Shown here: positions 20,401 through 55,340 of the stretch, piece by piece | Position numbering within the stretch: the first letter of the stretch is position 1 | Layout of the letters: every line of letters starts with the position of its first letter | The notes under the pieces: generated by a model | What the model was told of the DNA's origin: nothing | The model's input: only the letters and a program-made list of their open reading frames with translations | Databases searched by the model: none | Translations under genes and position numbers: made by a program | Source: Gekko japonicus | Taxonomy: Eukaryota | Direction of reading: 5' to 3' | Assembly: GCF_001447785.1 (NCBI RefSeq) | Contig: NW_015173680.1 | Coordinates: 650,557-714,556, forward strand | DNA length: 64,000 nt

Positions 20401-23400
20401 TTGTGTCTTGCAACAGAACTGCTTCCATCAAGGGCACCAAGGCAAGATATAACTATCCATGAATGGATTTGTTCCCTTGGATCAGTAAGGGCAAAGCCAC
20501 GACTGCTGTTGTCTCAGTTGTGCTTTCTATTTTGAACATAACAGGTGCCTTGCTGGATCAGAGAGTGGTCTATCTAGTCCAGCTGTGTCACACAGTGACC
20601 AGCCAGTTGTCCTGAAGGACCAAAAGGCAAGGCATAGAGGCCAAGGCCTTTCTCTGATGCTGCCTCCTAACATTGATTTGTTTCCATGGTATATGGAGGT
20701 TTTCTTTAGTCATCATGGCTGAGGCCACTGAATCTGTCTAACCTTTTATAGTTCTACCTGTGCTGGTGGCTATCACTACACCCCACTGGTGGTGAATGCC
20801 ACCATTTGATTACTCATTAAGTAAAGAAGTACTACCTTTTGTCCATCCTAAATCTATTGCCCATGAACTTCACTTGGTGCCCCAGAGTTCTAATATTATG
20901 AGAAAGGGTGAAAATGTTTTCTCTTCCCTTTCTCCATCCCCATAGATCAGTGGTATTCACTCCACAGCTCATAGAGAACCACATCCACAGTTACCATCAA
21001 CCAAAAGAGCCACATTTACTTCCTTCCCTGTCATTAGGCCTGTACCTCAGGGAGGCTCGTAGCTTACTTGTTCCTCTGGCAGGAGCTGTTTCAAGGTGAG
21101 AAACATTTGCCAACTAGAACTGCAATGCCCACTTTTCTGAAACTAGGGGCAGGAGCCCTGTAACTATCCTTCTCCTGAAAGTGCTGTGTATAGAGGTTCA
21201 GATCCACTCCTGCAAATACATAACCTCTTGACAGGCAGACACAGAGGGAGGGAAGGAAACGTGGCCACTAACCATTCCACAGCTCACTCAGCAGAGCTGT
21301 CATGATCTGGGTTGTGCCACCAGAGGCCTACTAGGGCCAGGGAGCCTGGCTAGCAGTAAGGGAGGCTGGGCCTACAAACCCCAGAAGGCCTTGAGAAGTT
21401 TTGGCACCAATTTTGACCAATACGGAAGAATAGGGCTGGGGATTATAGGAACTAGTACAAGAGGGAAAGCTGTTCTTCTTCCCAGGGAACAGAGCCAGAA
21501 GGGACTGAGGCTGCTGTGGGGAGGAAACCCTCATCCTGAGGGAAGGGTGAGTCTAAGGCCACTTGATAGTGAGGTAGGGACAATATATATTTAGACACAT
21601 TAGGGCATTTGATTTCTTTTCTTTTTACCCGCTTACTGTTGTTATTCTGCACCTTGTTTGTTTGACCTCCTATAAAATAAACTATTTTCATTGTTCACTC
21701 TCCCTGGTCCTCACGCTTATTATTCAGCCAAAAGGGAGGTCTAAAGGCCTGGGAGGGTGCTCTGGGCTCAGAGGAGCCTGGAACCAGAGTGGTGGCAGTG
21801 TCTGGTGACACCCCACCTGAGCTGTGACATGGTGGCTGTATCGGTGGGATGGACTAATTTTGGACCCTGGTGAGGCAGAGTGCCATTTGGCCTTGGCAGA
21901 TTTTTTGTTTGTTTGTTTTGTTTTTGTTGTTGTTGTTGTTTTGCTTTTGGTCTTAAGGAAGCCCCATTGTTTGAAGGTACTTGCAAGACCAAGTAAGGGT
22001 CTGATAAGGTGTGGTGAAAAGGTTTTGTTTATGTTCTAGTTGTCGGGTCAACTGGATAGTGAGGCAGAGTTAGATAGTGCATGTTCCTCCGATCTGGGAA
22101 AGAAAAATCAGAGGACACGCCTGTTGCCAGACGCAAGACCCGAATAGGGGCTGCAGGTCTCATGTCGGTGGAGGACACAACAGAGAAAACAATGGCATCC
22201 CTGAGTGTAGAGACCTTACGTCTCCAGCTGCAACTTAAGCAGGCAGAGCTTGAGTTAGAGAAAGCAAGGCTGCAGAAAGAGGAGACTGCAGCTAGGATGA
22301 AGATGGAAAGAGAAAAGCTGCAGAGAGAGGAGAAAGAGGCTGCAGCTAGGATGGAGATGGAAGAAGAAAGGCTGCAGAGAGAGGAGAAAGACTGCAGCTA
22401 GGATGGAGCTAGAAAGGGAGAGAATGAAGATGGCATACAAGCTTGAAATGGCATATTTGAGGCCCACCTTCACTTCCTCCAGATGCTGCCGTACAAGGGG
22501 ATAGAAGGAAATATCCTCTGTATAAGGAAGGCTGGATCGTGGAAGGTAGCTGTGCATGATTATACCCCGGTAGCCATGTTTGTGGGGGAAGATTTAGCGG
22601 AGCAGATGACTGTGGAACCCAATGAACCTGAGATGGCAGAAAAGGAGGCCAATCCAGAGGCAGATGTCTATGTGCAGTTCTTAAAGGACTTTGAAGATAT
22701 TCCTGAGCAACCCAGCCGGCAAATCGATGTCTACCAGCAGTTCTTAAATGACTTTAAAGATGTCCCTGAGGGAGCCTAGTCAGAAAACCAATGTCTACAT
22801 AGGTGTTAACCCGTCGTCGGTCTGAGAAGCAGCAGCAAGGTGAGCACACCCCGGCAACTTCTCCAGACCCTGTTGCAGAGCCAATGGTGGTAGAGTCTCC
22901 TCCAGTGACTCCAACTGCATTCCAGAAGGATCAAGAGGAGGACGCCAGCATGGAAGAAGTCCATATCAACTTTGATTCTATGATCCCATCTGGTTTGGGT
23001 GACTTTCCACACAACTATGCTGCTCAAACCAGTGAACAACAGCATCAGCAACCACCCCTAGAACCTAACACTACTGGGAAAACTGAAGATATGGCATTTC
23101 CAAAGTCCTTGGAAAGTAGTTCCACAGCTGGAGCAGAAAAACTGAGAGTTGTGAAGCAGCCTGAAGAGGAAGCAGAGAACAGTAAGCCGGCTTTAGTAAA
23201 TGACCATCGGAGTGGAGGAAATGAGAGCCAGTTGTTCCTCAAGACTGAGTTTGCAGTGCCAGTATAACATTCCATTAGTGTTAGTCACAAAAGTCAACCT
23301 GACAACAGCAGGAGAAGAGAATTTGATAAAGACTCTCTGGAGAGCTCTAGTAGCATGCCAGATCCAGTGGATCCTACTACTGTGACAAAAACATTCAAAC

Positions 23401-26400
23401 CAGAAACAGGCAGTGATCTTTCTGTGTTTGAAGCTTTGAGAGACACCATTTATTCTGATGTAGCTACATTGATATCTCATAACAAAGCTCGCCTTCATGT
23501 TCTAATTGAGCTTTTTCATGAACTTCAGCGGCTTAATTCAGACTTTTTGAGACAAAACGAACTGTATAGGTTACAGGATATAGAAGCCAACACAAAAGCA
23601 GAATGTCCAAAACCTCTGAACTCAATGGCAGGGTTCAGACCCAATTTAGAACTTACTCCCAGCAAAAGCCTTGCTACTACTGATAATGAGACATTAGAGA
23701 AGAGTTTTGACCCAGAAGGATCTGCAGTGCATTAACCTGACGTTGTATGTTGATCAGAATACTGTTTTACTGTTTTATTATTGTTTTTATATGTTAATGT
23801 TGAGTGAGTTGAAAGGGCAAACCACAAAAAAAAAAAGAAAGAAAGAAAGGGCAAACCTGACAGCCCAAATCTTCTGTGCAGACCGCATCTATGGGGATCC
23901 GGGGCTGGACCCCATGATTTGGTCTAGTGGGGGGGGGGTTTTTTTGCCATGATCTGGCCTGTGCCACCAGAGGCCTACTAGGCCCAGGGAGCCTGGCTAG
24001 CAGTAAGGGAGGCTGGGCCTACAAACCCCAGAAGGCCTTGGGAAGTTTTGGAGCCGATTTTGACCAATAGGGAAGTAGAGGGCTGGGGAATATAGGAACT
24101 GGTACAAGAGGGAACCTTGTACCAACCTAGCAGTTCGAAAGCAAGAAATTGCAAGTAGGTAAATAGGTACCACTTCGGTGGGAAGGTAACAGCGTTCCAT
24201 GTGCCTTGGTGTTTAGTCATGCCGGCCACATGACCACTGAAACGTCTTTGGACAGCGCTGGCTCTTCGGCTTTGAAACGGAGATGAGCACCGCAATCCTA
24301 GAGTCGGATTTGACTGGCTTTCGAGCAAGGGAACCTTTACCTTTACAAGAGGGAAAGCTGTTCTTCTTCCCAGGGAACAGAGCCAGAGGGGACTGAGGCT
24401 GCTGTGGGGAAGAAACCCTCATCCTGAGGGAAGGGTGAGTCGTCTAAGGCCCCTTGATAGTGAGCTAGGGACAGTATATATTTAGACGCGTTAGGGTATT
24501 TGATTTCTTTTTACCCGCTTACTGTTGTTGTTCTGCACCTTGTTTGTTTGACCTATAAAATAAACTATTTTCATTGTTCACTCTGCCTGGTCCTCATGAC
24601 TTTTATTCGGTCAAAAGGGAGATCTAAAGGCCTGGGAGGGTGCTCTGGGCCTTCTTGGAGGAGCCTGGAACCAGAGTGGTGGCAGCGTCAGGTGACACCC
24701 CGCCTGACCCTTAACAAAAGCAAACTCCCATGGAAAACATTTCTCCAAAGAGGGGAAGATAATATTCAGAGGAACAGCTTTGTGCAAGGCAAGGGTGACA
24801 GAGATTAGGAGAAGGAACAAGAGAACCTGTTCTCAGAAAACATTCCTGTCACCTCCCCAGTAGCTCCCTCCAAAATGAGAGTGAGGCATTCAAATTCCAC
24901 CAACAGGTAGTGGTGGGAAGAATAAAGCAAAGCTCATCTTTTGGCTACCAACAAGCTGATCAGCAACAAAACAGAAGGAAGAATCAGGACTAGAATTCGC
25001 ACACAACTGGAAAAAGAGACACACAATGGAGCATTTGGAACTCTCCATTGGTCCTGGTATTGAACTCTTTATCCCGGCAGAAAAGGCATAGTTCTGTGGA
25101 ACAGCATAGGCTTTAGCATGCATCACGTCCATAGAATTATATCAAGCCATCATGTGGCTAGCTACAGAATAGTCTTGGAAGATACCCTAGGTACTGCTGA
25201 GGCTCTGCACTGTCATATCCAATAACTGGGAATGCCTGCTTGTGGTTATTATCTATCCAGAGTCCAGTCTTTTTGCTTAACATCCTCCCATGTACCCATC
25301 CCCACTGCTGCAATCATAAGACTAATTACTGCTGCCTGTTGCCTTTCATCCCAGCAAACTGTGTTCTCTATCCTTCCTTCCTGTCTTGTAGTCTGCATGG
25401 TTTATCATACACCAATGTGAAGTGTAATATCAGGGGGATTTTTGACTCCTGAGGAGTCTGCCTGTGAGGCCCACCGTACTCAACCCCAGCATGCCCATGC
25501 TCTGCCATCCCGGTTAGGGTCAGGAGGGCTTCGCAGCCAGCTTCCCCAGTGGAAAGAGGAGAAGTTAGGACACCCCGGCCCTTCCCTTGGCTGACTCACT
25601 TGCCCTTGATCCTGGGTCATGTGTGCGCAGCCTGTTTCCTGCCTGGCCTGGAAAGCCTCCCTTTTATTTGACCTTGGGCCCCACTCTCCTTCCCTGTGCC
25701 CAATCCGGCCCTGGCTCTGCCTCCCTCTGGAGGTGACAAAGGGAGGTGGTCAGTTACCTGCTTCTGAAGCTGCCAGTCTTCCATCTCCCCTTCTTCCTGT
25801 TACTTGAGATGGACATCTTCCCTGTCTTTCAGCCAGGCTCAGTTTGGCTGGCTCTTGTTCCCCCTTGAAGTTGCAAGGCTCCTGTCCCTTGAAAGCTGCA
25901 TTGCCAGGAAAAACACAGGTAGAGCTGCTCCATCAGTGCATGCCCCTGATAGGTTCAGCTGTGGTAGTCAAACAGTTGACTGTGAAGCAGCTTATAGTGG
26001 TGCAAGAACCACGCTAGAGCACAGAGTTGGTAAACACATAGCAAAGCAACTAGATGCTAAGGTACTGCTAATATATTGCCAACAACTGTCAAGGGAAGAA
26101 GGATTGTTAGAGGGACTGTAGTTTGGTGGTGAAGCATCTCCTTGGCATACAGAAGGTCCCAGGTTCAATCCCTGGCATTTCCAGTAAAGATCAGGTAGTA
26201 GGTCATGTGAAAGACCTCTACCCAAGACCCTGGAGAGCCACTGCCAGTCTGAGTAGACAGTAATAACTTTGATGGACTGATGGTCTGATTCAGTATAAAG
26301 CAGCTTCATGTGTACAGTACATATTAGGTGCATGCTGCCTGGGTGGGAAGACCTTTGCAGCTCTCAGAGTTTGAGGCAGGGGATTCCTCCTCCCCCAATT

Positions 26401-29400: not shown

Positions 29401-32400
29401 CAGGGCTGTCCAAAGCAAATTGATTTTATTTTTCCCTTTGTAAACAAAGGGGGAGAATCAATCGTCTCCTAATTTTAACCAGTACGTGAGGGACCAGGGC
29501 GCCATGACAGACCAGCTGAGTCGGAGGCAGATCAGGGAGTACCAGCTGTACAGCCGGACCAGTGGAAAGCATGTCCAGGTGAATGGCAAAAGGATCATTG
29601 CCACAGCTGAAGATGGCAACAAGTTCGGTAAGGAGCTGGTGGCAACGCTTGAGTGCACCTTTGGAGGGACTTTCTGAGAGCCTGGAAAATACCTCTGAGG
29701 GAGGGATGTGGGTCTTAGTATTGGAAAAGTGCACACGAGGTCCTATAAGGTTTCTTAGCCAAGGAAACTTTCACATGACATCTCCTGTGCAACCTGAATG
29801 GAAAAATATGTGGGTGTTGGAAACAGGTCAGGGATAGACCTACCTGGAGTTAATGCAAAATAGCCACCTCAGGTGGTGAACTTTAGTTACCATTAAGGGT
29901 GGCCAAGTAGGTAGATAGCTCTGTTCCAAGGGGTGCAGTCTGCTCTGAAAACAGTGGCATATGCATTCTTGGTCCATGGGTAGCTGTCATGTGAAGATCC
30001 TGTGGACACTTTTTTTGCCCAAGTAAAGTCTTTATAGTCCTTCCAGACAGTGGCCTGCCAGAGATTACGGAGCCACTCAAGAGCCTAGGGAGACTTCACT
30101 TCCAAGGGGACAATTCAGCCTGTAGCCCCCACACCCCTCCCCGCCATGAGGCAGCAGTAGATGGATCTGTTGGTTCCCAAGTCTAGCCCTGGCCTCTCTC
30201 AACACCACACAAGAGTATGGTAGTGAGATGTGCTGTAATGGTTTCAACCACTTGTCACCCCATGTCTAATATCCTCTTTAGTATTTCTGCCCAGTCAGTC
30301 AATACTGCTCAGAAAGCTCTTTGCCTTTGGAATGCCTGTGAAGAAGCAACTGCTCTTTGTGTTGTGAAAATTGGTTTTGAAAAATTGTTCTATATATATT
30401 CCTGCCACAATGTCCTTCTCCCTCTCTGCCTGCCCTCAGCCAAGGTTTCTAGGCCTACAGCGTCCTCAGCTCCTCTAACATACACCTCTCCCTGACAACT
30501 CAGGAACACACCAGCTTTCCCACTTCTCTGGCATACCTACTCGGTCTCCACTGTCTCACCATCTCAGCTGGCTCCTTTCAGTTCTTATACGTTTCAGGGT
30601 AGAAGGCAGCCAGTGACTGCTAGTTCTGCTTCATCCTTCTTACAGCTGCAGACTGCCCTAGAGAGCCCTAAACTTACTGACAGTCTTCAGTTCTGCATTT
30701 GGAAGGGTAACTGACCACAGTATTACAGGAGTGTGGCTGTCTGAGCTGATAGTTGGTGCTTCCCTAGCTCATTCAAACCCCAAAATGTTTAGTTTCAGGG
30801 CCAATGTGCCAAGTGATTCATTTCTCTTGTTCTGCTTGCAGCAAAGCTGATCGTTGAAACAGACACGTTTGGGAGCCGAGTGCGCATCAGAGGAGCTGAG
30901 AGTGAGACATACATCTGCATGAACAAGAAAGGGAAGCTCATTGGCAAAGTGAGCAATGCAATGCCACCCCCTCTATCATCATGAATGTCACGGTTCCTAG
31001 GGCTGTTGACTGATTCAGTCATTTTCATTTGTTAATCATCTGTATTCTGATCGATTAATTGACAGGTTAATAAATGGTGGAGTTCTAAAGGTCTTGAAGG
31101 AAGCATAAGACAAACTCCATCTAGTATACACAAGCTCATTGTTAGAAGTCACAAACATCTCATACCTGTTCTGTGTGACCTTAATAAGTCAATGTGATCT
31201 TAACTCATAGCCCCACTGATTAATCTACTGGCATTTTTGGTTGATAATCCAGCAGTTAGAACTTGCTAGCCCTAAATATTACCAATTTTGCAAGCACCAT
31301 GTATGTGAGTGGTGCTTTAAGAAGTTCAGTGGTACAGCTACCACTTATTTATTTATTTATTCAAATTTATACCCCGCCCTCCCCGCAAGCTGGCTCAGGG
31401 CGGCTTCCAATAAAACACAAATTACATTAAAATACATAATATACAACATGCCATAAAACATTATAAATACAAAGTGCAGGCGGCAGATTAAAATTCATTT
31501 CGATGGTAAGTTGCAGAATCAATTGCCATTGCCCTGGTGTCCACAGATGGCTTCTATCATTAGTCCGTGTAGTTGTTAAATCCACAGGCCGTATTAGTTG
31601 TAATACTCTGCAGTGACCTGCAGTAGCATGAGCCTATAACAGCAGCGGCCCCTACTTAAATGCCTGGCGGAAGAGCTCCGTCTTACAGGCCCTGCGGAAC
31701 TGTAACAGATCCCGCAGGGCCCTGATCTCCTCCGGGAGCTCGTTCCACCAGGTAGGGGCCGCTACTGAGAAGGCTCCGCCCCTGGTAATGGCTAACTTAG
31801 CCTCCCTCGGGCCAGGAAGGGTCAACAGATTTTGCGACCCCGACCGTAGTGCTCTCTCGAGTATATACGGGGAAAGGCGGTCCCGAAGGTATGTTGGACC
31901 CCGGCCATGTAGGGCTTTAAAGGTAAGAACCAGCACCTTGAAACGGACTCGGTATGCTATAGGCAGCCAGTGCAGTGTCCTCAGCACAGGCTGGATGTGC
32001 TCTCGTCTAGGGAGATCCATCAACAGCCTGGCTGCGGCATTCTGCACCAGCTGCAGCTTCCAGATCCGAGACAAGGGCAGCCCCAAGTAGAGAGCGTTAC
32101 AGTAGTCTAGTCTCGAGGTGACCATCGCATGGATCACTGTTGCTAGGTCAGCGCGGCTGAGGAAGGGGACCAACTGCCTGATCAGCCTAAGATGGTAAAA
32201 GGCCGACCTGGCAGTGGCCGCCACCTGGGCCTCCATGGTAAGGGAGGAATCCAGGAGGACGCCCAAACTCCGCACCTCCGGCGCTGGCACCAATGGTGCC
32301 CCCCCCCGAAGGACGGAAGAGGGATCCCCGCCCCTACACCGCCCCGACTCAAGCACAGGACCTCTGTCTTCGCTGGATTCAGCCTCAGTCGACTCAGTCT

Positions 32401-35400
32401 AAGCCAACCCGCCACAGCCTGCAAAGCCCCGTCCAGGTCCTCCGGTCTGGATCCTGACCGGCCGCCCAGCATCAGATAGAGCTGGGTGTCATCAGCATAC
32501 TGATGGCACCCCAGCCCCTGCCTCCGGGCAATCTGGGCAAGGGGGCGCATATAGATATTAAACAACATGGGGGACAGCACGGCCCCTTGAGGCACACCGC
32601 ATTCCAGCGGGTGTCTCCTGGACCACTGTTCCCCCAGCGCCACCCTTTGTCCCTGACCTTGGAGAAAGGAAACCAGCTATTGTAAGGCTAGTCCCTGAAT
32701 CCCCACGTCGGCGAGGTGGTGGGCTAGCAGCTGGTGGTCGACCGTGTCAAATGCGGCCGACAGATCTAACAACAGCAATACTGCCGATCCGCCTTGATCC
32801 AGATGCCTTCGGAGGTCGTCAGCTAGGGCGACCAGGACCGTCTCTGTCCCGTGTCCCGGGCGGAAGCCAGACTGAAAGGGGTCGAGCACGGAAGCGTCAT
32901 CCAGAAAGCCCTGCAGCTGTGTCGCCACCGCCCTCTCAATCAACTTGCCCAAATAGGGCAAGTTAGAGACCGGCCAATAGTTGGCCAAATCGGACGGATC
33001 TAAGGATGGTTTTTTCAAGAGAGGGCGGACCATTGCTTCCTTGAGTGCCCCAAGGAACTGTCCCTCTAATCCCATAGGATGTATTTAAGGTTTAGGCAGG
33101 GCACTGAGGTGTTCCAGTACACATCCCTCCAATTCGGTCTTGCTACTGCCGTGAGAATATTCACCAAGTATATAGCCATAGTGGTGGTGCATCTCTCCAC
33201 ACATAGGGTTGCTCTGTTTTTCCATACCTAGACGATTGGCTTATTGTGGGGCCCCAATGACTACATTCATTGCATCATTTCCACCTGTAGCAGGTTAGGT
33301 CTGATGGTGAATTGGGAAAAGTCTCACCTTGAACCCTCTCAGTGAGTTGAGTTCATTGGTTCCTCCCTTGATGCTATCATGGGGAGGGCCTTTTTGCCTA
33401 CAGGCAGGGCTAAAAGCATCAAGGCAATGGTGTTATGCTGTGTGAGAAAATGCTGGCAGCCAGTAAGGCCGTTCAACAGCTGTTGGGTTTATGGCTTCAA
33501 CTTCTGCAGTGGTTCCATTTGCAAGGCTGCACATGCGGAACTTACAAATCTGGTTTGTCAAGAGGTATGAGTCCAATAAAAAAGCCCCAAGACACTGGTT
33601 TTCAATGCCTAGGGGGGTGGTTAGGTCTCTGCAGTGGTGGCTAGATGACATAACTTGTTGACCATTTTCAAAACTGCCTTTGTATTCCATTTGAGTAACT
33701 GACTGCTAAAGGATTTTTTTCTGTCATTTCAGACAGACCCATTTTAGTAACCAGCTGCTAGCAGAATTTATTGACCTGTTCATACAACCCACTTGCAATG
33801 GGTTGAGCCACTTTTGAGGGAAACTGCTTTTCTCCATTTTCGACCCCTTCATTGCACTTCTGAATCACTGTGGTGTGCTGTTTCAAATGTCCATAGCACT
33901 TCCTACAATGCAGCTTTTCCCCCCACCCTTTTTCACCATGCAAACTTCCTTGGACTTTTTTTTTAACGTTCTAAGGTGAGCACTATAGCTCCATTGAGTC
34001 AGTGCATCTCAATGGTGCCTCTATAGCACTGAATTTTATAGCGGTTTAGCACTATAGCACTCACCTTAGAGCTTTTTTTAAAGTCTGAGGGAAATTGCGC
34101 CGTGACAAAGGGGGGGGGGGAGCACCACTGTTTAGAATGACCATGGCGCTGCAGAAACGGCTCATTAATGCAAGGAAATGCACTGTATGAAACCCCTGTT
34201 CCTGTATAGCTTTACTCAAAATTGGGCCAACAACAAATAACATCCAGTTTAGAACGGTAATGTGAAGTGGGCTGTTTTCAGGGATCCAATTTGGTTTCTG
34301 GGTTCCCCAGGTCACTCTAACCACAGATGCTTCACTGTTGGGTTGGGGTGCCCATTGTAAAGGTTTTTCGGTGCAGGGTTGGTGGCCTTCAATGCAGACT
34401 ACTTCCCATATTAATCTCCTAGAACTTCGTGTGGTGAGATTTGCCCTTACCTCTTTTTCAGATATTCTTGGGCAAGAGGGTGTTGATTCAAATGGACACC
34501 GCAACAGTATATTATTTCAACAAACAAGGAGGCATGGGTTCCTGGAGGCTTTGCCTGGGGGGCAGTAGCAGTTTGGGAAATAGCTATGAGCATTGGAGCC
34601 CTTCCAAGGGCCAACCACGTAGCAGGGACTTCAAATACAGAAGCAGACAGACTGAGCAGGGTCTATCAGACCAACTACAAATTGTCTGTCCAGCACAGAT
34701 ACATCAAGGTGATTTTTGACACACGGGGGTATCCTCAGGAGGACCTGTTTGTCATGGCCAAGTCCAACAAAGCACTAGACTTCTGCTCCCTAGCGGGCAG
34801 CGACCCAACTTCCCTGAGGGATGCATTCCAGATCCCTTGGTCAGGCGCACTCTTTCATGCATTTCCTCCCTTCCCTCTCCTAAGCAAAGTTGTAGGGAAG
34901 ATGGTGGCCGAGTGGATGGATGGCATCCTAGTAGCTCCCTTCTGGCCCTGCCAGATCTAGTTCTTAAAGCTGTTCCACTTAGTGGGCACAGACTGCATAT
35001 TGTCCCACCCCCACCCCACCTCAGACCTACTGATGCATGGTCCATTGGTGCACCACGATGCAGCACAGCTACATTTGACACCATGGAGTGCCCCTTCTCC
35101 CAAGGAGTAAAAGATAATCTTGCTTCAGGCCCATGAACCCTTTGCAAGATATTCTTCTGACAGGAAATGGGCTCATTTTGAGTCCTGGGTGTCTGCTAGG
35201 GGAGAGTGCCCTTTTACCTGCCCATTAGCATCAGTGTTGGAATACCTGTTGTTGTTAGCACAGGCTGGTTTAGTAGTGTCTTCGGTAAAGGCCCACCTAG
35301 TGGCCATTGCCATCTCCATGAGGAGGTGGCAGGGAAGTAGTGTTTTTGGCCATAAGTTGGCTCAGTGTTTTTAAAGGGGCTGACCAATGTTTTTCCCCCT

Positions 35401-40170: not shown

Positions 40171-40554
40171 CTACTCTGTGAGGTATGTTAGGCTGAGAGA
40201 GGAGGACTGGCCCAAGGTCACTAAGAGAGCATTATGGTAGAGTAGAGATGAGAATCTCTCCTCTCCTGGGTCAAGAGTAGTGTTTAAAAAAAGACCAGCA
40301 AGAAAAAAATAGCATTTTGGAAGCTCTTCCACAAAGTTATTGAATCGAGTCATTGCAATTTACCCTTATCCTTATTTCCTTGCTTAGACACTCCTTTCCT
40401 TATTTATTCATATCATTCATTTTCTTCTCCTTCTACCCCTGAATACTTCATTAGTTATAGGATAAAAGTAATCTTTAAAGTGCCACTGGACTCCTGTCTT
40501 ATTCCGCTACGGCACAATAACATGGCTACGCATTTGGAATCTTCATTAGCTACG

Positions 40555-41195
40555 GATTTTTATAAGTTTCCAAAGCTATAATATCCTTTTTAAGGTGTGG
40601 TGACCAGAACTGCACACAGTATTTCAAATGAGGTCGCACCATTGATTTATATAGGGGCATTATGATATTGGCTGATCTGTTTTCAGTGCCCTTCCTAATA
40701 ATCCCCAGCATAGCATTGGCCTTCTTTATTGCAGTCACACACTGTCTCGACATTTTCAGTGAGTTATCTGCTACAACTCCAAGATCTCTCTCTTGATCAG
40801 TCTCTGCCAGTACAGACCCCATCAATGTGTATTTATATTTAGGATTTTTGGCTCCAATGTGCATCACCTTACACTTGGCCACACTGAACCCCATTTGCCA
40901 TGTTGACACCCACTTGCCCATCCTTGACAGATCCCTTTGGAGTGCCTCACAATCCTCCCTGGTTTTCACCACCCTGAACAACTTCGTATCATCCGCAAAT
41001 TTAGCCACTTCACTGCTTACTCCCAACTCCAAATCATTAATGAACAAGTTAAAAAGCAGTGGACCAAGTACTGATCCCTGCGGTACCCCACTGCTTACCA
41101 CCCTCCACTGAGAAAATTGTCCATTTATACTCACTCTCTGTTTTCTATTAATTAGCCAGTTTTTGACCCATAAAAGGACAAGTCCTTTTATCCCA
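40555..41195 (-). mobile_element. CR1 LINE ORF2 fragment
   Basis: SGVPQGSVLGPLLFNLFINDL..KFADDTKL..LYKSMVRPHLKYCVQFWSP. Confidence 0.92.
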
Positions 41196-44089
41196 TGCAC
41201 AAGTAACAAAACGAGTAAACAAAAATGACAGTGCAGAAGTGTCTGCCCTGTAGCTCCTTGATAGATGCCATATTTTGCATAAAGTGTTTCCACAACAGAC
41301 TTCCACTTGATCAAGCGCAGCTACAAAGGGACTTGAGGCAGGATCAGAACCCTTCTCACTGAAAGTAGCTTGCTGGTGAGCTGTAGCTGTAGAATGTGCT
41401 CCAGGCCCTTTTGGAAACCTATTTCTTTTTGAGTCCCAGTACTTGGTGCTTACAAAAGTTGAAGAACCTTGGGAGGACAAAACTGTCTAAACCCCCTCAG
41501 TTTAAACAGCAAAAGAAAGCAGTCAGCCACATGTCTGTGAATCTCGTCAATTATACCAGTCTTGTCAGACAAAAGTCTGGGCCCCTCTTTCCTCTATTGA
41601 ATCACCTTTTATTTGCAAACTCAAGCCCACAATAGCTGGGGCAAGAGGCACCGTCTTTGGAATCTGGCAGCCTTTTACTAGGTCTTAGTGGGGTGTTACC
41701 TGCCGGAAAACTCCTCAAGGCACGGAAATGAGGAAAGCTTATCCAGCTAACCTTTTGAGAGCTTGTGGGCGTTTTGCTGAGATCAAAGGCCTGGTGGAAA
41801 TGGAGGTTGCAGGACCGGGCCTCCCTGAGCCTGTGCCAGCAGCAAGGTTCATTGTTTGGAGCCCCTTGGAAAGTAGCAAGAGGACTGTCCAGATAAGAGA
41901 AAAAGAAGTCAGTCCCCCATCTATTGGCTTCACATTTTAGAGGTGGGGTGGGGGCTTTCAAGCTTTTCTACACATTCAGCCAGAGGCCTGAGGTGTCTCA
42001 CTGCCTGGGATCAACCAGGTTGCAAGGATGGGGAACAGTTATAAGGGCTTTGCATGCTGCAAGCAAGAGTCCTCTGTTCTGTGATCATTCCAGGCAACGA
42101 GAATTAATTTGTGTTCAGTGGAAGTGACCAAGTGCCCCTGCCTGAATGCACCTCCGATGCCATTGCCACATCCCACTGGATAGTGCTTTTTTCTTCAACA
42201 CCTACAATTGTTAAGATGCTAAAGCACCCTTGTGGGCTTTTGAGGCTGGGTCCTGTGGAAAAGATCCCTGGGTGCAGGGGGAGAGGTCATTTTCAATTAT
42301 TATATTCCTGCTCATGGCGNNNNNNNNNNNGCCTGCTGCTGCAGCCCTTCTCAGTTCCCCCCAGTGCTGCCCTTGGGGGTTGCCTGCCCCCCAGAAGCAG
42401 GATTTCAGCCTGCAGCAGGAGTGGCAATGGTGAAGTCACACTTCCATGCATACAGTTTAGAGGGCATCCAACCCTTTGTCCATCCTGCCTCTGGACCTTA
42501 TTGAGGGATGACAGTGCTGGTTGTGATGACATCCCATATTTATTAAAGGCCTTTTTTGACAATCTGTTTGTAGTGTCCTAAAGACAAAAGTGACATTACC
42601 CATACAAGTCAGCAAAGTGTATTGTATCAGGGCTAATGCAGGAACAAAGGGGAAAGGGGATATTTGGACAAATTGCCAGAATAGTTCCGCATGCAGTGTG
42701 CCAACTAACCCTTTGCTGTGGTTTCTTTCACTGTGTTTTTGATCTAGCTTGGTCAGTTAACAGCTTCCCTCACTCCCTCCCCAAGTCTCCTTGCTTGCCA
42801 TCAGGAAGAAAGCAGACACAGGGTGTTACATTCCTCTTAGCTAGCTGCTGTTAATGGATGTGTTCTCCGTGACCAATTTTAATCATTACTTACAACTGAT
42901 TGTGTTCTTGACCTTTATTGCTGCTTCTTGCAATGAGGCACCAGGCTAGTTGTGTGAAAAGGGACTTGGTCTGCTGCTGGGGAGGGGGGCTCTATCTGTC
43001 ATTGATATCAGCCACTGTGGTTCCTGTTTCCAGTGAGCTGCAATTCAGGTCAGAAACCTTCTGACAGAAGCAAACTAGGTCATCCACCTGACTCCAGCAG
43101 ACTGTGGCTGCCTTGTTGGTCCCAAAGGGCTAGAGACAGAAGTTGCTGTACCCTTCACTGGGCCAGCTGAGGTTGGTGGAAGGAATGAGCATACGCTGAG
43201 ATGCCAAGAATTCTTCATCAGGCAATGGAACAAAATTTCCGGCTAATGTTAAGCAGCTGGATTGTCAGTGACTGAAAAACCCTTGTATTGATAATGACCT
43301 AAAGAGGTGCATGGTACTAGGTAACAATTTTTTATTCCCAGCATGCTGAGCACAGTCTGATACCAGATGGCCACACCCTGTGCCCACTGAAGTCGGCTAA
43401 GCATCCCAATGGGATCCTGTGGTGTCCAGACAAACCATGACCACCTGAAAGATCCTTTTTTGCTCCCCCTGCCTTTTGTTTAACATCCAGTCTGATGAAG
43501 AGTTCATTAGAACCTAAAAGCTTGCACAGTTTTGTGTTAGTTGGGTTTGTCCTAGTAAAAGGTATTACGTTCCTTTTTTTTTTGCTATGAACCAACATGA
43601 CGATGTTTAACCAACTTCCAGAGGAGCAGCCATGTTAGTCTATTACAAGAAAAATTACAAAAAGATCGAATCCCACCACCTTGCTTCTGTGAAACCCCTG
43701 GCTATGCATTCTCCTAACAGCAAACTTAAGATGGTGCATTTTAAAAAATGCAATTTTACACACTTTGTGGGTACAATTTCCTTAGGTTATGTTTTCAGTG
43801 ACAACCCGTTGCTCAGATCAGAAATATCCATGAAAACAACAAATGGGGAGTTGAGCGGCCACACACCTGAACGCACACGCATATATATCTTGGCCTTTGG
43901 TGAATAGGTTTTTTTGTTTGTTTTTTTAAAGGGCAGATCAGCTTCTGCAGACATCGCAAAGTCACTGGACCGCTTCCCCTCCCCCATCAATCTCCCCTCT
44001 AATTGCTTTTTTCCTGCTCACAATACGGACGAGCAAGAATTTTAATCCTGTAACTGGGCCTCCAAAAGCCATTCACAAAGCGACACAAA

Positions 44090-51548: not shown

Positions 51549-52399
51549 CGGACGTGGAAAAAGATAGGACAAGCTTGTATGCCAAAGAAAAGAAGGAAGG
51601 TCTTGCAAAGATCTCAGCTTTGGCACAGCGCCTCAAATTCTGTGAACACCACATTTGCAAAAGAGGCTGATCAGGCTGAGACCTTGTTTTCCTTCTTGCT
51701 TGCAGATGGAGTTTTTGCAAATTCCTTTTGCCTGCTACTTACTCGAACAGACTAATATTCACCTGAACCACAGGGAAGTCTGGAGGGATGAGTATGTGAG
51801 GTGGCTGGGCTGCCCTTTCCCAAAACAGGAAGAAGAGGGGGACATAATTTTAACCCCAGTGGCTTTAGCTCGGTTTGGCATAAAAAGAGGGCTTTAGAGC
51901 ATGTGCAGTATTCTTCACTAGTGAATAACCACAGTATACCTGACCAGTGGTTTGTTTTTGTTGCATCACAGCTACTTGTGGGGCTGCTTTGATTCCATGA
52001 CAGTTATATAGGTTTTAGGTGCCTCTGTATAATTACCTTGGGTTATAAATGTCTTAAATGAACAAATGTCCAGGTCAGAAGAGGCAATCCCCCAGTATTC
52101 TTGCTTGCGCTCTGGTGCTTCTGGCTTTAGAACTCAAGTGAGCATTGATGGAAGGTGTGCTGGGGTCTTAATTATTATAGTAGATCACTGGGGCGTAATG
52201 AAGAAGATAGCTTTGTATTTCTTGGAAATGATTAAATCTGGAGATGGAAACAGACCTCACCCCTGGAAGCTGCCTCGTCGTATTTCTAAAGGAGTGCATC
52301 TGAGCATGTGCAGGCAGGCTTTCGCCTCCTCCGGGTTGACCACACCCTGCCCCACACCGTTGCAATGTGGGGAGGCTTCCTTCCAGTCCCGGCACCTTT

Positions 52400-54430
52400 C
52401 TTCTCCGAAACAAAGCAGGCCTTGGCAGCCCACAGCCCGGGCTCTGCCAGCTTGCGATGGGGGGCGGGGTAGGGGGGGTTCCTATGCACGTGGTGTCTGC
52501 CGGCCATCTCGCGGGTGGGGGGAGACAGGTGCTTGGGCCCGATCCTCAGACCCGGAGGGCAGCGCGGCCAGTCAGGGGCTGCCTGGCTCTCTCCTTCCCC
52601 GCCGCTCCCCCCGGCTGCTCCCCGGGCCTTGCCTCCAGCCGGGCGCGCCCCAATCCTGCTTCGTCACCGCGCCGCTCGCTCCGTCTCCTCTCCTGCGTTC
52701 CCGAGCGGCCAGCAGCGCCAGCCCAGCCGCGCTGGAGGGGGCGGGCAGAGGGAGGTGGCGGCGCGGGAGAGGCGCCTCTGGTCTCGCGCGCGCCCGGAGC
52801 GGCCGCCTTTGCCGTCGGTGCTCGGCGCGGTCCGTCTCTGTCTGCCTGTGTGCCCCGTGGGCCGGCCGGCCGCTCTGCGCCCGAGGGAGGGGCTCGCCCT
52901 TGCTGCTGCCGCCGCGGGCCCGGCTTGGTAAGTGGCGACGTCTCGACTGGGCGTGGAAGCGAAGCCGCAGCGCCGCGCTTTGGGGAGAGGTGGCGAAGCC
53001 CCCTTTCGGGGCCAGGAGGCGCCGCGGCCTTAGCCGAGCTGGCGCAGAGGCAGGAGGAGCTGCTGCCCCGGTTGGATTTCCACCTGTCCTAGAGCGCTGG
53101 CTGGCCGGGCGGCCGGGGGGGTGGGAGAGAGAAGGAGGAGGCTGCGGTTGCCTTTTGGGAAGGGGGCGGACGGGGCTGCCTCTCGGTCCCTGCGCGCTGT
53201 TCCTCTGGCCCCGTCGTCGCCTCTCTGCCTTCGCTCCTGTTCGTATTCCCTCGCTCCGTCCCGTCTGTAGGGGGCAGCTGGCCGAGGGACGGGCCAAGCG
53301 GCCCCAGGAGCCTCGCCGCCGGGGCCCTGCCCTGCTCGAGGGGGTTCTCCCGAGGCTGGGTGCCCGAGCTTGCTTTGCGCGCCACCGGTCGGGGGAAGGA
53401 GCCAGCAGGTCACCTCCGGATTTCGGCGTGTGGGTGTCAAACGCCCAGGGGGTCTCCCCCGTACTGCGGGGGCCGTGCCGGAGGGCGGCGTTTCATCACC
53501 TCCCATTTTCCTCCAGCCCTTTCGCTGCCGGCAGAGGGAGAGAGGAGCCCGGCCAGAAACAACGTTGGCAGCAGAGCTTTGAGGGAAGTTGGAGGTTCCG
53601 AGGGCGCGTCCAGCTCCGGGCTTTCCCGAGTGGGCCCCCAACGCCAGGTCGCGTCTTCACTTCCTCCAGGAGAGGCGGTGGCTGAGCCGGCCGTGTGTCC
53701 CGTCGCCGGGGGCCAGATCAGCCTGCTGACGTTACTTGGGGTCCGGGGGGGGGCTTTCCCCGTCAAAACGTAGTCCCGCCGATCCCGGAGGCCCGTCGGG
53801 TTTCGCAGCATGGAGCGGGAGTCTCCCCCGCTTCCCCCGTCAAAACGTAGCCCCGCCGATCCCGGAGGCCCGTCGGGTTTCGCAGCATGGCTCAGCACCC
53901 GCCCTCCTTCTTCGACGACGTCCAGCAGGTGCCTCGGCTGGGCGTCGGCCGGCCCTTCTCCAAGCGCGCCAGTTCCGCGCACCGCCAAGCCTTCCTGGGA
54001 GGCTCGGGAAAGGAGCCGCAAATGGCTCCGACGCCGGAGCTCGGTTGCGCGCTGACGAGGCGGGCGCCCGTCGGGGACGCCTCCTGATCGGTCGCGCCGC
54101 TGTCGGGGCCTGGGGAGGCGCGCTTGGCTGCGAGGTGGCCTCCGCCCTGCCCTGCCTTGGCGCGGCTTTGGCTCCTTGTGACCTGCGAGGCGGGAGCTCG
54201 GAGCACGCCAGCCAAGCCGGCACAAAAGCCTTTGCACCGCTGAAACTCTGGCTCGGGGGCCCTGGGAGTGGGTTTGCTCTTCGCGCTGTTTTCTGGGGTT
54301 GCGCCCTTCAGACACAGGGCGGCGGGGCGTGTTTCTCAGACTTCGAGCCCTGCCCCCGACGAGTTGAGTCTGAATGCCGGCAGGAAAGGAGCGACGGGAG
54401 AGGCTGCCGGGCCAAGCAGAGGAGGATGGC
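52400..54430 (+). promoter_or_regulatory. Large CpG island with a candidate non-coding first exon ending at 52927
   Basis: Very high CpG and a strong donor TG|GTAAGT at 52927/52928. The downstream gene is probably DMTN, by synteny only. Confidence 0.65.
53757..53890. repeat. ~57-bp direct repeat (period ~77 bp) within the CpG island
   Basis: tccccgtcaaaacgtag.cccgccgatcccggaggcccgtcgggtttcgcagcatgg occurs twice. Confidence 0.85.
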
Positions 54431-55340
54431 ATGAAGGCGCTGCCAAACGTCTCTCGCTCCCAGGCCTGACCTCCTCATCTTCCTCCAAGGAGCTCCCAAC
54501 ATTTCCACTTGAGCGTGGAGGGAGGGGAACAATTTCAGGGTGTGCCTGGGAGGGTCTGGCTAAAGCTTTCTTCCAGTCTTGTTTTGCCTCTGATTCCCCA
54601 CCCCCCCCCAAAAAAAAACCCCAATCCGGCTGTCTTTTTCTTCTAAAAGGAGAAATTGGCAGGCAAGTGGGACCCCTTCACACCTGCTGTTTCTCCACAT
54701 TAAACGACCTCCATACAGTCCACCTGGACCATCTGAGGAGCTCAGATCTGAGCTCAGGGCTCCACCACCTGAAGCTCCCTGCACCCTAGATGCACACTGT
54801 CCTGGACATTCTCTCCGTCTGATCCACCAAGCAGCTGTTTTTGGGCTGACAGGGTTGGGTTTGTCTCCCTCCAAGCCTTGGGTGGCTCTTGTGGGTCTTC
54901 TGGGAGGCACAGACTTCCTCTGGTCTCAGAGCAAACTGTTATTGTGTCCCCTGTGTGGAATGGTGATTTGGTGTATATATAGGGGGAAAGGCACTCCAGA
55001 GTGGATTCAGGCTCTTAAACGCACTTGCCACAATAAATGTGGTCATCTTTAAAGCTCCACCAGACTCTTTGGGTTTGTAAGCACAGTGTCCCTCTGCACA
55101 GTTAGCAAGCTGAGTTAGTCCTTCTAGGGGGGAAGATACAAAGTGAGGGAGGATGAACAAATACAGGGTTGTGTACAAAATATGCACATCAGAAGCGGGA
55201 ACTCTGATTCCTCTGGGGTATCGCTGTTGACTGCCTTACTGAGGTGTGCCTGCTGTGAGTGGAGCTGGGTTCCTAACGCACGGTAGCTGGGGAACCTCAG
55301 GATCCTCTCTGGGTGGCTTTTTTGTGGGGGTCTGGGGCCA

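Follow-up and report, generated by a model that had tools for sequence, protein, structure and literature searches.

The window examined here, a stretch of 64,000 nucleotides (nt) from the gecko Gekko japonicus (contig NW_015173680.1, positions 650,557 to 714,556), contains on its plus strand, at 21298-24716, a dead copy of a long terminal repeat (LTR) element whose interior carries a spliced piece of the host gene PCM1. The two LTRs (21298-21829 and 23945-24716) have TG...CA ends, are about 90-92% alike (Kimura two-parameter distance, K2P, 0.070) and are flanked by AGAGC and AAAGC, which agree at four of five positions. They measure 532 and 772 nt, and the difference is largely one later 241-nt insertion with a 12-nt duplication. 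The paired LTRs and near target-site duplication (TSD) described in the initial annotation of this locus are thus borne out, and a primer-binding-site-like motif and a polypurine tract, also described there, lie at the expected places in many copies of the family. A motif resembling a tRNA 3′ end, complementary to the primer-binding site save for a 3-nt bulge, occurs at 11 places; at neither of the two such loci checked (L059 and L060) was a tRNA called by ARAGORN or Rfam.

Gag, the protease remnant and the linker behind it are interrupted in the window copy by stops (22399, 22444, 22777 and 22800) and by frameshifts, which is why the copy is regarded as dead. The initial annotation had recognized these three parts correctly, but it is only from the linker onwards that one frame persists: at 22803-23735 the linker (LTRRRS...) runs straight into PCM1, with TAA at 23265-23267 as the sole stop. 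Its statement that the fusion had diverged without frameshifts applies only to the PCM1 part of the window copy, and not to gag, protease and linker. As it had also noted, integrase, reverse transcriptase (RT) and RNase H are missing, apart from the last pol codons at the 3′ junction. The stop of the fusion lies 210 nt upstream of the 3′ LTR.

The identity of the captured piece is clear. It matches the Pfam profile PCM1_C with an E value of 2.6e-38, the top matches among 1343 database hits are squamate PCM1 proteins, and it aligns to residues ~1093-1237 and 1342-1451 of lizard PCM1; a better match to some other protein, which would have spoken against the assignment, was not found. PCM1 of the host is a single intron-bearing gene on the minus strand of G000:C4963, to which the window piece is 87-92% identical. 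Alignment to this gene gives five host exons (A, part of B, C, D and part of E) joined at the host GT-AG boundaries with the introns lost, and loose ends in RNA-seq data support the host joins of exons Z-A, B and C-D. Exon C of the host is 98-100% conserved between lizards. The roughly 250 intronless codons with one stop that had been reported are therefore spliced exons with one TAA, but they are not continuous, as 330 nt have been deleted in frame at 23401/23402. No solved structure covering the PCM1 piece was found.

The window copy is one of many. A DNA search gave 149 candidates, of which the 40 scored all match at 83-94%; a Pfam search gave 148 candidates, and the 70 matches scored comprise two from the host gene and 38 new loci, the non-host matches being confined to PCM1_C profile positions 1-112. 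By manual count there are at least 78 distinct non-host loci across both search tables, and from the numbers of candidates the family probably comprises ~150 copies. In the 42 loci inspected by sequence the 5′ join is common to 32 of 33 copies and the 3′ join, where visible, to 33 of 38, which confirms the proposal of a non-autonomous LTR family that mobilized a PCM1 piece. The flanks vary between copies and perfect 5-bp TSDs surround L004, L040 and L050; the copies are therefore separate integrations. Seven LTR pairs have K2P distances of 0.033-0.070 (L019, at 0.141, and L030, with 110 nt, are probably not genuine pairs and were excluded), and the two closest short copies are 3.7% apart. At an uncertain rate of 1-2 substitutions per billion sites per year, this would correspond to an old and apparently extinct burst roughly 10-35 million years ago. 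Two apparent open frames of 747 and 682 codons in the Pfam search table are runs of N. In the protein database no annotated whole gag-PCM1 fusion was found (40 hits among 8000 scored; none of four candidates), which is weak evidence as regards other species.

The carrier can be traced through a relative that lacks PCM1. A pattern search for the linker without PCM1 behind it gave one hit, L043-L045, the closest of four PCM1-free relatives compared. It reads, in order, gag with a SCAN domain (Pfam E value 2.1e-08 in L043), a zinc knuckle, protease and, directly after the protease linker in L043/L044, a Pfam integrase (H2C2/rve/SH3); the frames that follow are recognized by eye, from their motifs, as RT and RNase H-like. 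Over the last 160 nt before the junction it is on average 90.7%, and up to 97.5%, identical to 30 copies of the family, and the window copy is 95.6% identical there to the relative L051. The SCAN region is kept in copies with a full gag and deleted in the window copy. The order protease-integrase-RT/RNase H together with SCAN defines Gmr1-like elements, according to the available part of bioRxiv 10.1101/2025.03.03.638093. By its SCAN-like capsid and gene order, the family appears to derive from a Gmr1-like Ty3/gypsy element, of which it is, as read from sequence, a non-autonomous derivative with PCM1 in place of integrase, RT and RNase H.

How PCM1 entered the element is recorded at the junctions. 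In 32 of 33 copies the linker meets exactly the first base of exon A, at a point where the relative reads CC before and GTGAGC after the join. The exception is L056, which matches the relative for 29 nt further and carries the long PCM1 form: after 26 nt of integrase its sequence passes at TCCC(g/t)TCAG to exon Z, through the end of which it reaches exon A. This switch falls at the end of a codon in both frames, in a word shared at eight of nine positions. In the exon-Z part a later dispersed repeat of 293 nt (L056:1105-1397, AT-rich, with 190 candidates genome-wide) has replaced 24 nt, and a later insertion of ~400 nt with a 13-nt duplication lies in the linker (L056:534-936). The segment absent from the other copies thus amounts to 26 nt of integrase start plus 73 nt of exon Z, or 99 nt. 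It begins with GTGAGC and ends with 16 pyrimidines in 17 positions followed by CAG; the end of exon Z is more pyrimidine-rich than any of eight true acceptors compared, and TTCAC ahead of it is presumably branch-like. Of 17 informative differences that separate the whole family from the host, L056 shows 16; it also has the 3′ join of the family, and the tree places it basally, though weakly supported (L049 was omitted from the tree for having too few sites). At the 3′ end, exon E and the last pol codons have AGGAG in common.

The sequences of these joins show that two template switches at short shared words captured spliced PCM1 mRNA in frame. In this first step, RT jumped at TCCC(g/t)TCAG, 26 nt inside integrase, from the element RNA to spliced PCM1 mRNA, of which ~1.2 kb (end of exon Z through nt 31 of exon E) was copied; it jumped back at AGGAG within the last pol codons, so that PCM1, in frame with gag-protease, took the place of integrase, RT and RNase H. 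The capture would thereby have placed the element's GTGAGC, a potential donor, 99 nt upstream of the acceptor-like end of exon Z. We strongly infer that in a second step this new 99-nt intron, with a donor from the element and a cryptic acceptor at an exon end, was spliced out; the reverse-transcribed spliced RNA would then have founded nearly all copies. The capture by template switching suggested at the outset is supported, but the present 5′ join would stem from later splicing and not from the capture itself. We consider the family and this history of capture very probable.

Later steps gave rise to several structural forms. The long copies contain all seven exons, are basal in the tree and differ from the host by 5-7%; only nine non-host loci were found among 12 candidates for this form, so that the short forms are the large majority. 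The short copies lack 330 nt (the rest of exon B, exon B2 and all but 2 nt of exon B3) and, except L035, form one clade with 100% support. The window subfamily has additionally lost 957 nt of gag-protease, exactly so in ten copies, with 962 nt missing in the window copy and 966 nt in L030, and the window copy thus belongs to the most deleted subfamily. The +43 shift that L016 and the window copy seemed to share arose from misalignment. In six short copies gag is only ~75% like the relative, against 87-89% in long copies, and the type of LTR differs too; therefore an exchange with another helper lineage is indicated. L057 and L035 break the strict order of forms, which points to recombination between copies. 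The copies document in-frame deletions of 330 and 957 nt, a 63-nt duplication and the gag/LTR exchange, through which the successive subfamilies arose. One copy, L050 (G000:C12328), has a further in-frame deletion within PCM1, from nt 79 of exon B to nt 53 of exon C, and reads 457 stop-free codons from gag into PCM1. The 110 codons absent from the short form (host C4963:825776-823855, from the end of exon B to B3) include a lysine/arginine-rich stretch resembling a nuclear localisation signal.

Two aspects of the evolution of these copies stand out. First, the PCM1 amino acids evolve neutrally. Calculated on 39 copies at non-CpG sites and adjusted for transitions, omega in PCM1 is 1.05 for private changes and 0.94 for changes present in at least four copies; nonsynonymous to synonymous changes (N:S) number 22:4 on the stem of the short form and 9:3 on clades in exon C, and clade-level and terminal N:S do not differ (p 0.25). 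Purifying selection on the PCM1 protein, by which a domesticated retrogene would be recognized, was accordingly not seen, omega being ~1. Second, the reading frame is kept. Length changes found in at least three copies are multiples of three in seven of seven cases, against six of 37 private PCM1 indels (Fisher p 4.5e-5), and no clade-level frameshift was observed where 5.3 were expected (p 0.014). No stop codon, scored on real codons, is common to three or more copies. The primary junction and the 99-nt loss are likewise in frame, and the gag start region (213-320 nt) has a length divisible by three in nine of 12 copies. Eight of 30 copies are open across PCM1, close to neutral decay from an open source, and in gag and linker the omega of shared changes is 0.26-0.46. 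Selection for an open frame is therefore likely, and an open frame without constraint on its amino acids fits selection on translation itself. The idea of a once-translated fusion is supported by these data, but the divergence, being neutral, gives no pointer to a working PCM1 domain.

Our results suggest that the copies would have been moved by the enzymes of helper elements, and that RNAs open from gag to near the 3′ LTR would have been copied preferentially, with translation acting in cis. There are two conceivable routes for such an effect. Given that the fusion stop lies so near the 3′ LTR, the 3′ untranslated part stays short as long as the frame is open, and this could stabilize the RNA against nonsense decay; alternatively, the gag N-terminus, which is still present, could promote the entry of the RNA that encodes it into helper particles through co-assembly. 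The PCM1 residues would then be neutral filler, a translated passenger and not a working PCM1 domain. Taken as a whole, this explanation (capture, secondary splicing, selection for the frame only and helper-driven amplification) is the best available and probably right, and we lean, with somewhat less assurance, towards translation in cis over a function of PCM1. The expression data are mixed. At 22975 the host letter is found in 115 of 115 reads in run X13, 26 of 30 in X14 and 21 of 36 in X12; the reads of the PCM1 region carry mostly host letters, with an element-type minority in two runs, and the libraries look unstranded. Two contigs of X1, a run only guessed to be RNA, extend across the linker/exon A and 330-nt joints at a depth of ~3.

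Several points count against this explanation. Further unspliced copies were sought and only L056 was found, and this sole unspliced copy carries the later 293-nt repeat in its exon-Z part. The GTGAGC donor is present only in L051, the nearest relative, and in L056, and farther relatives read GTGAAC, ATGAAC and GTTCAA at the donor site; as a 2-nt GT repeat flanks the 99-nt segment, a plain deletion would also be allowed. With regard to selection, recombination with helper lineages confounds the low omega of gag and linker, and in exons A and B amino-acid changes on clades are mildly depleted (25:14 against 161:37; p 0.03, uncorrected, one of three tests). Among the seven shared indels, the +6-nt change of 19 copies may instead reflect a loss in the reference relative only. 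The gag-protease indel table contains three frameshifts that occur in two copies each, one of them an alignment artefact, and one further two-copy frameshift occurs in the PCM1 indel table. The depletion of stops would by itself carry little power.

The strongest alternative is that the family was amplified through its LTRs, primer site and packaging alone and that PCM1 was simply carried along, the in-frame joins being due to luck and codon-periodic microhomology. An omega of ~1 in PCM1 agrees with this, deletions do use short shared words, which within coding sequence tend to share a codon phase, and the independent events are few. Chance would nevertheless have to account for seven in-frame shared indels out of seven beside six of 37 private ones, for the absence of clade-level frameshifts, and for a primary junction, a 99-nt loss and nine of 12 gag-start lengths that all keep the frame; we consider it an unlikely account, though one with some weight.

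It can also be asked whether the PCM1 piece was useful to the element, by guiding the fusion protein and its RNA to centriolar satellites or to the region around the germ-cell centrosome, or by interfering with host PCM1. No subfamily seen has lost the piece, nearly all scored loci retain the first 109 positions of PCM1_C, exons A and B show the mild nonsynonymous deficit just mentioned, and the family-wide differences from the host number N7:S8, although these include changes of the host lineage. Against such a function, exon C, the most conserved in the host, changes freely, the stem of the short form is rich in nonsynonymous changes, and 110 codons were deleted, with more in L050. In the human numbering of the available part of bioRxiv 10.1101/2025.07.27.666075, the captured piece includes the start of PCM1_C and no more than the tail end of the second self-association region, and it lacks the LC3-interacting region. 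The proposal is thus improbable, and equally doubtful is its special form, in which a gag-fused PCM1 tag brought the element RNA to satellites or the centrosome and constraint relaxed after a first burst; if true, it would mean that a vertebrate retrotransposon had spread by means of a borrowed host organelle-targeting segment.

Our early reading, replaced after L056 was found, was an event of the oncogene-transduction type, in which RNA of an element lying within a PCM1 intron was spliced to the true acceptor of exon A. It would explain why nearly all copies start exactly at exon A, and the donor-like GTGAGC of the nearest relative suits it. L056 would then have to be a later recombinant, but it joins exon Z to integrase at a shared word and has the family's own differences from the host, so that a recombinant origin requires a second capture from the same mRNA; moreover, no LTR remnant was found in 20 kb of host gene sequence. 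This route is very unlikely. A one-off retrocopy made by a long interspersed nuclear element (LINE) inside the LTR element, or the segmental duplication of one locus, can be dismissed, as the A-run at 23824-23845 that might suggest it lies ~105 nt past the end of PCM1, comes with a separate 12-nt duplication and does not occur in any of the five other copies checked, PCM1 substitutes for pol and does not interrupt it, and the flanks differ between copies, with 5-bp TSDs. The poly(A) tail, own TSD and interrupted target of a LINE-made processed pseudogene were all not found around the PCM1 piece, whose junctions recur in other copies, and the one-off insertion that the initial annotation had allowed for is thereby refuted.

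Capture by LTR elements is itself known, and the preferred reading, capture followed by splicing and selection on the frame, can be set beside several described systems, here on the basis of the available parts of the cited reports. LTR-mediated retrocopies include maize Bs1 and human FAM8A1/HERV-K (Tan et al. 2016, PMC5131818). As in those cases, a partial spliced mRNA replaces internal open reading frames with shared words at both switches, the gene piece has no poly(A), and further non-autonomous copying follows; however, they number one to few copies (one to five for Bs1) and no reptile was surveyed, whereas the PCM1 family comprises 78 copies or more in several structural subfamilies, has a Gmr1-like carrier and includes a splicing step whose intermediate is preserved (PMC5131818). 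Mouse IAP 1-delta-1, a form of the intracisternal A particle, is similarly non-autonomous and internally deleted, has one fused frame and outnumbers fuller forms, and its gag-pol fusion is reported to be cis-acting (PMC6466679, citing Saito et al. 2008). That fusion consists of gag and pol only, whereas the distal frame of the PCM1 family is a piece of a host gene; likewise, the cis effect in the PCM1 family is read from patterns of indels, whereas IAP 1-delta-1 provides the precedent (PMC6466679). The PCM1-free relative resembles Gmr1-like elements in its SCAN-like capsid and protease-integrase-RT/RNase H order, but the family differs from them in lacking integrase, RT and RNase H, and the window subfamily in lacking capsid and zinc knuckle as well (bioRxiv 10.1101/2025.03.03.638093).

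Two further families gained interiors of unusual origin. Human SVA_F1 acquired a host exon (MAST2) with a splicing step and was amplified to at least 84 copies, but it is a non-LTR element moved by LINE-1, with one 5′ exon and no gag fusion frame (PMC3287187). Chicken Soprano/ENS-1-ERNI is, like the PCM1 family, a vertebrate LTR family with an interior frame other than gag, pol or env and dozens of broken copies; a host function is reported for ENS-1/ERNI and no host parent gene is named, in contrast to the PCM1 family with its plain parent gene and no indication of a host function (PMC13320278). Full-text literature searches showed no PCM1-carrying retroelement; subscription papers, Repbase, Dfam and the supplements of Tan et al. 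2016 lay outside these searches, and a repeat library may already contain the family without a name. What appears new is the scale of amplification, the preserved intermediate and the selection for the frame only.

One capture has thus given a vertebrate family of at least 78 loci, whose PCM1-free relative, unspliced chimera and later derivatives are present in one genome. This opens to sequence analysis the question of whether RNAs of non-autonomous LTR elements are selected for an open frame, whatever it encodes. It also calls for caution in the reading of junctions, since a captured exon end that has turned into a splice acceptor can rewrite a junction so that it mimics capture by splicing. 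Finally, the family scatters PCM1 coding pieces through the genome, and these are found in two predicted host gene models, both labelled in the database as gecko: predicted protein P0138 (ZNF277 model) begins with gag coil, linker and PCM1 exon A, with 86% identity to L050 over 58 amino acids, and P0142 (PTGFRN model) ends in the PCM1 tail of the element. These may be annotation artefacts or real use of exons.

Table 1. Parts of the PCM1-carrying element copy, in window coordinates
Feature	Position	Strand	Remarks
Left target-site copy, AGAGC	21293..21297	+	right copy AAAGC at 24717-24721
5′ LTR, TG...CA	21298..21829	+	AATAAA at 21676
Primer-binding-site-like TGGTGGC...	21830..21850	+	six other copies have it at this place
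Gag N-terminal coiled-coil region with 54-nt repeats	22192..22531	+	broken by stops and a frameshift in the window copy
Joint of the 957-nt in-frame deletion	22531..22533	+	lost: capsid/SCAN, zinc knuckle, most of protease
Protease C-terminal remnant and protease-integrase linker	22533..22962	+	63-nt duplication at 22663-22770
Junction after loss of the 99-nt GT...AG segment	22962..22963	+	segment still present in copy L056
PCM1 exon A, whole	22963..23146	+	host C4963:827988-827805
PCM1 exon B, first 255 of 362 nt	23147..23401	+	private stop 23265-23267
Joint of the 330-nt in-frame deletion	23401..23403	+	shared 2-nt word CC
PCM1 exon C	23404..23576	+	Pfam PCM1_C begins here
PCM1 exon D	23577..23687	+	18-nt deletion private to the window copy
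PCM1 exon E, first 31 nt	23688..23718	+	return to the element at shared word AGGAG
Last pol codons in another frame, fusion stop, 3′ untranslated part	23719..23944	+	fusion stop 23733-23735
Polypurine tract, G-run	23929-23938	+	inside 23719..23944
3′ LTR	23945..24716	+	
High-copy short repeat inserted in the 3′ LTR	24103..24355	+	between two 12-nt copies TACAAGAGGGAA

Some minor features of the window may be added. Within the element, an A-rich insert of 22 nt lies between two AAAGGGCAAACC copies at 23812-23857; it is private to the window copy and resembles a tail-only retroinsertion. The short repeat in the 3′ LTR, a putative Sauria/Squam1 short interspersed element, reaches thousands-fold read depth in the RNA runs. 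Elsewhere, three minus-strand segments (1961-2515, 31652-32676 and 40550-41320) contain RT-like fragments, presumably of CR1- or L2-like LINEs, and a plus-strand frame at 34487-34960 resembles the RNase H/methyltransferase region of DIRS-type elements. The stretch at 52000-55000, ~28 kb from the element, is GC-rich (up to 0.67) and is probably a CpG-island promoter.

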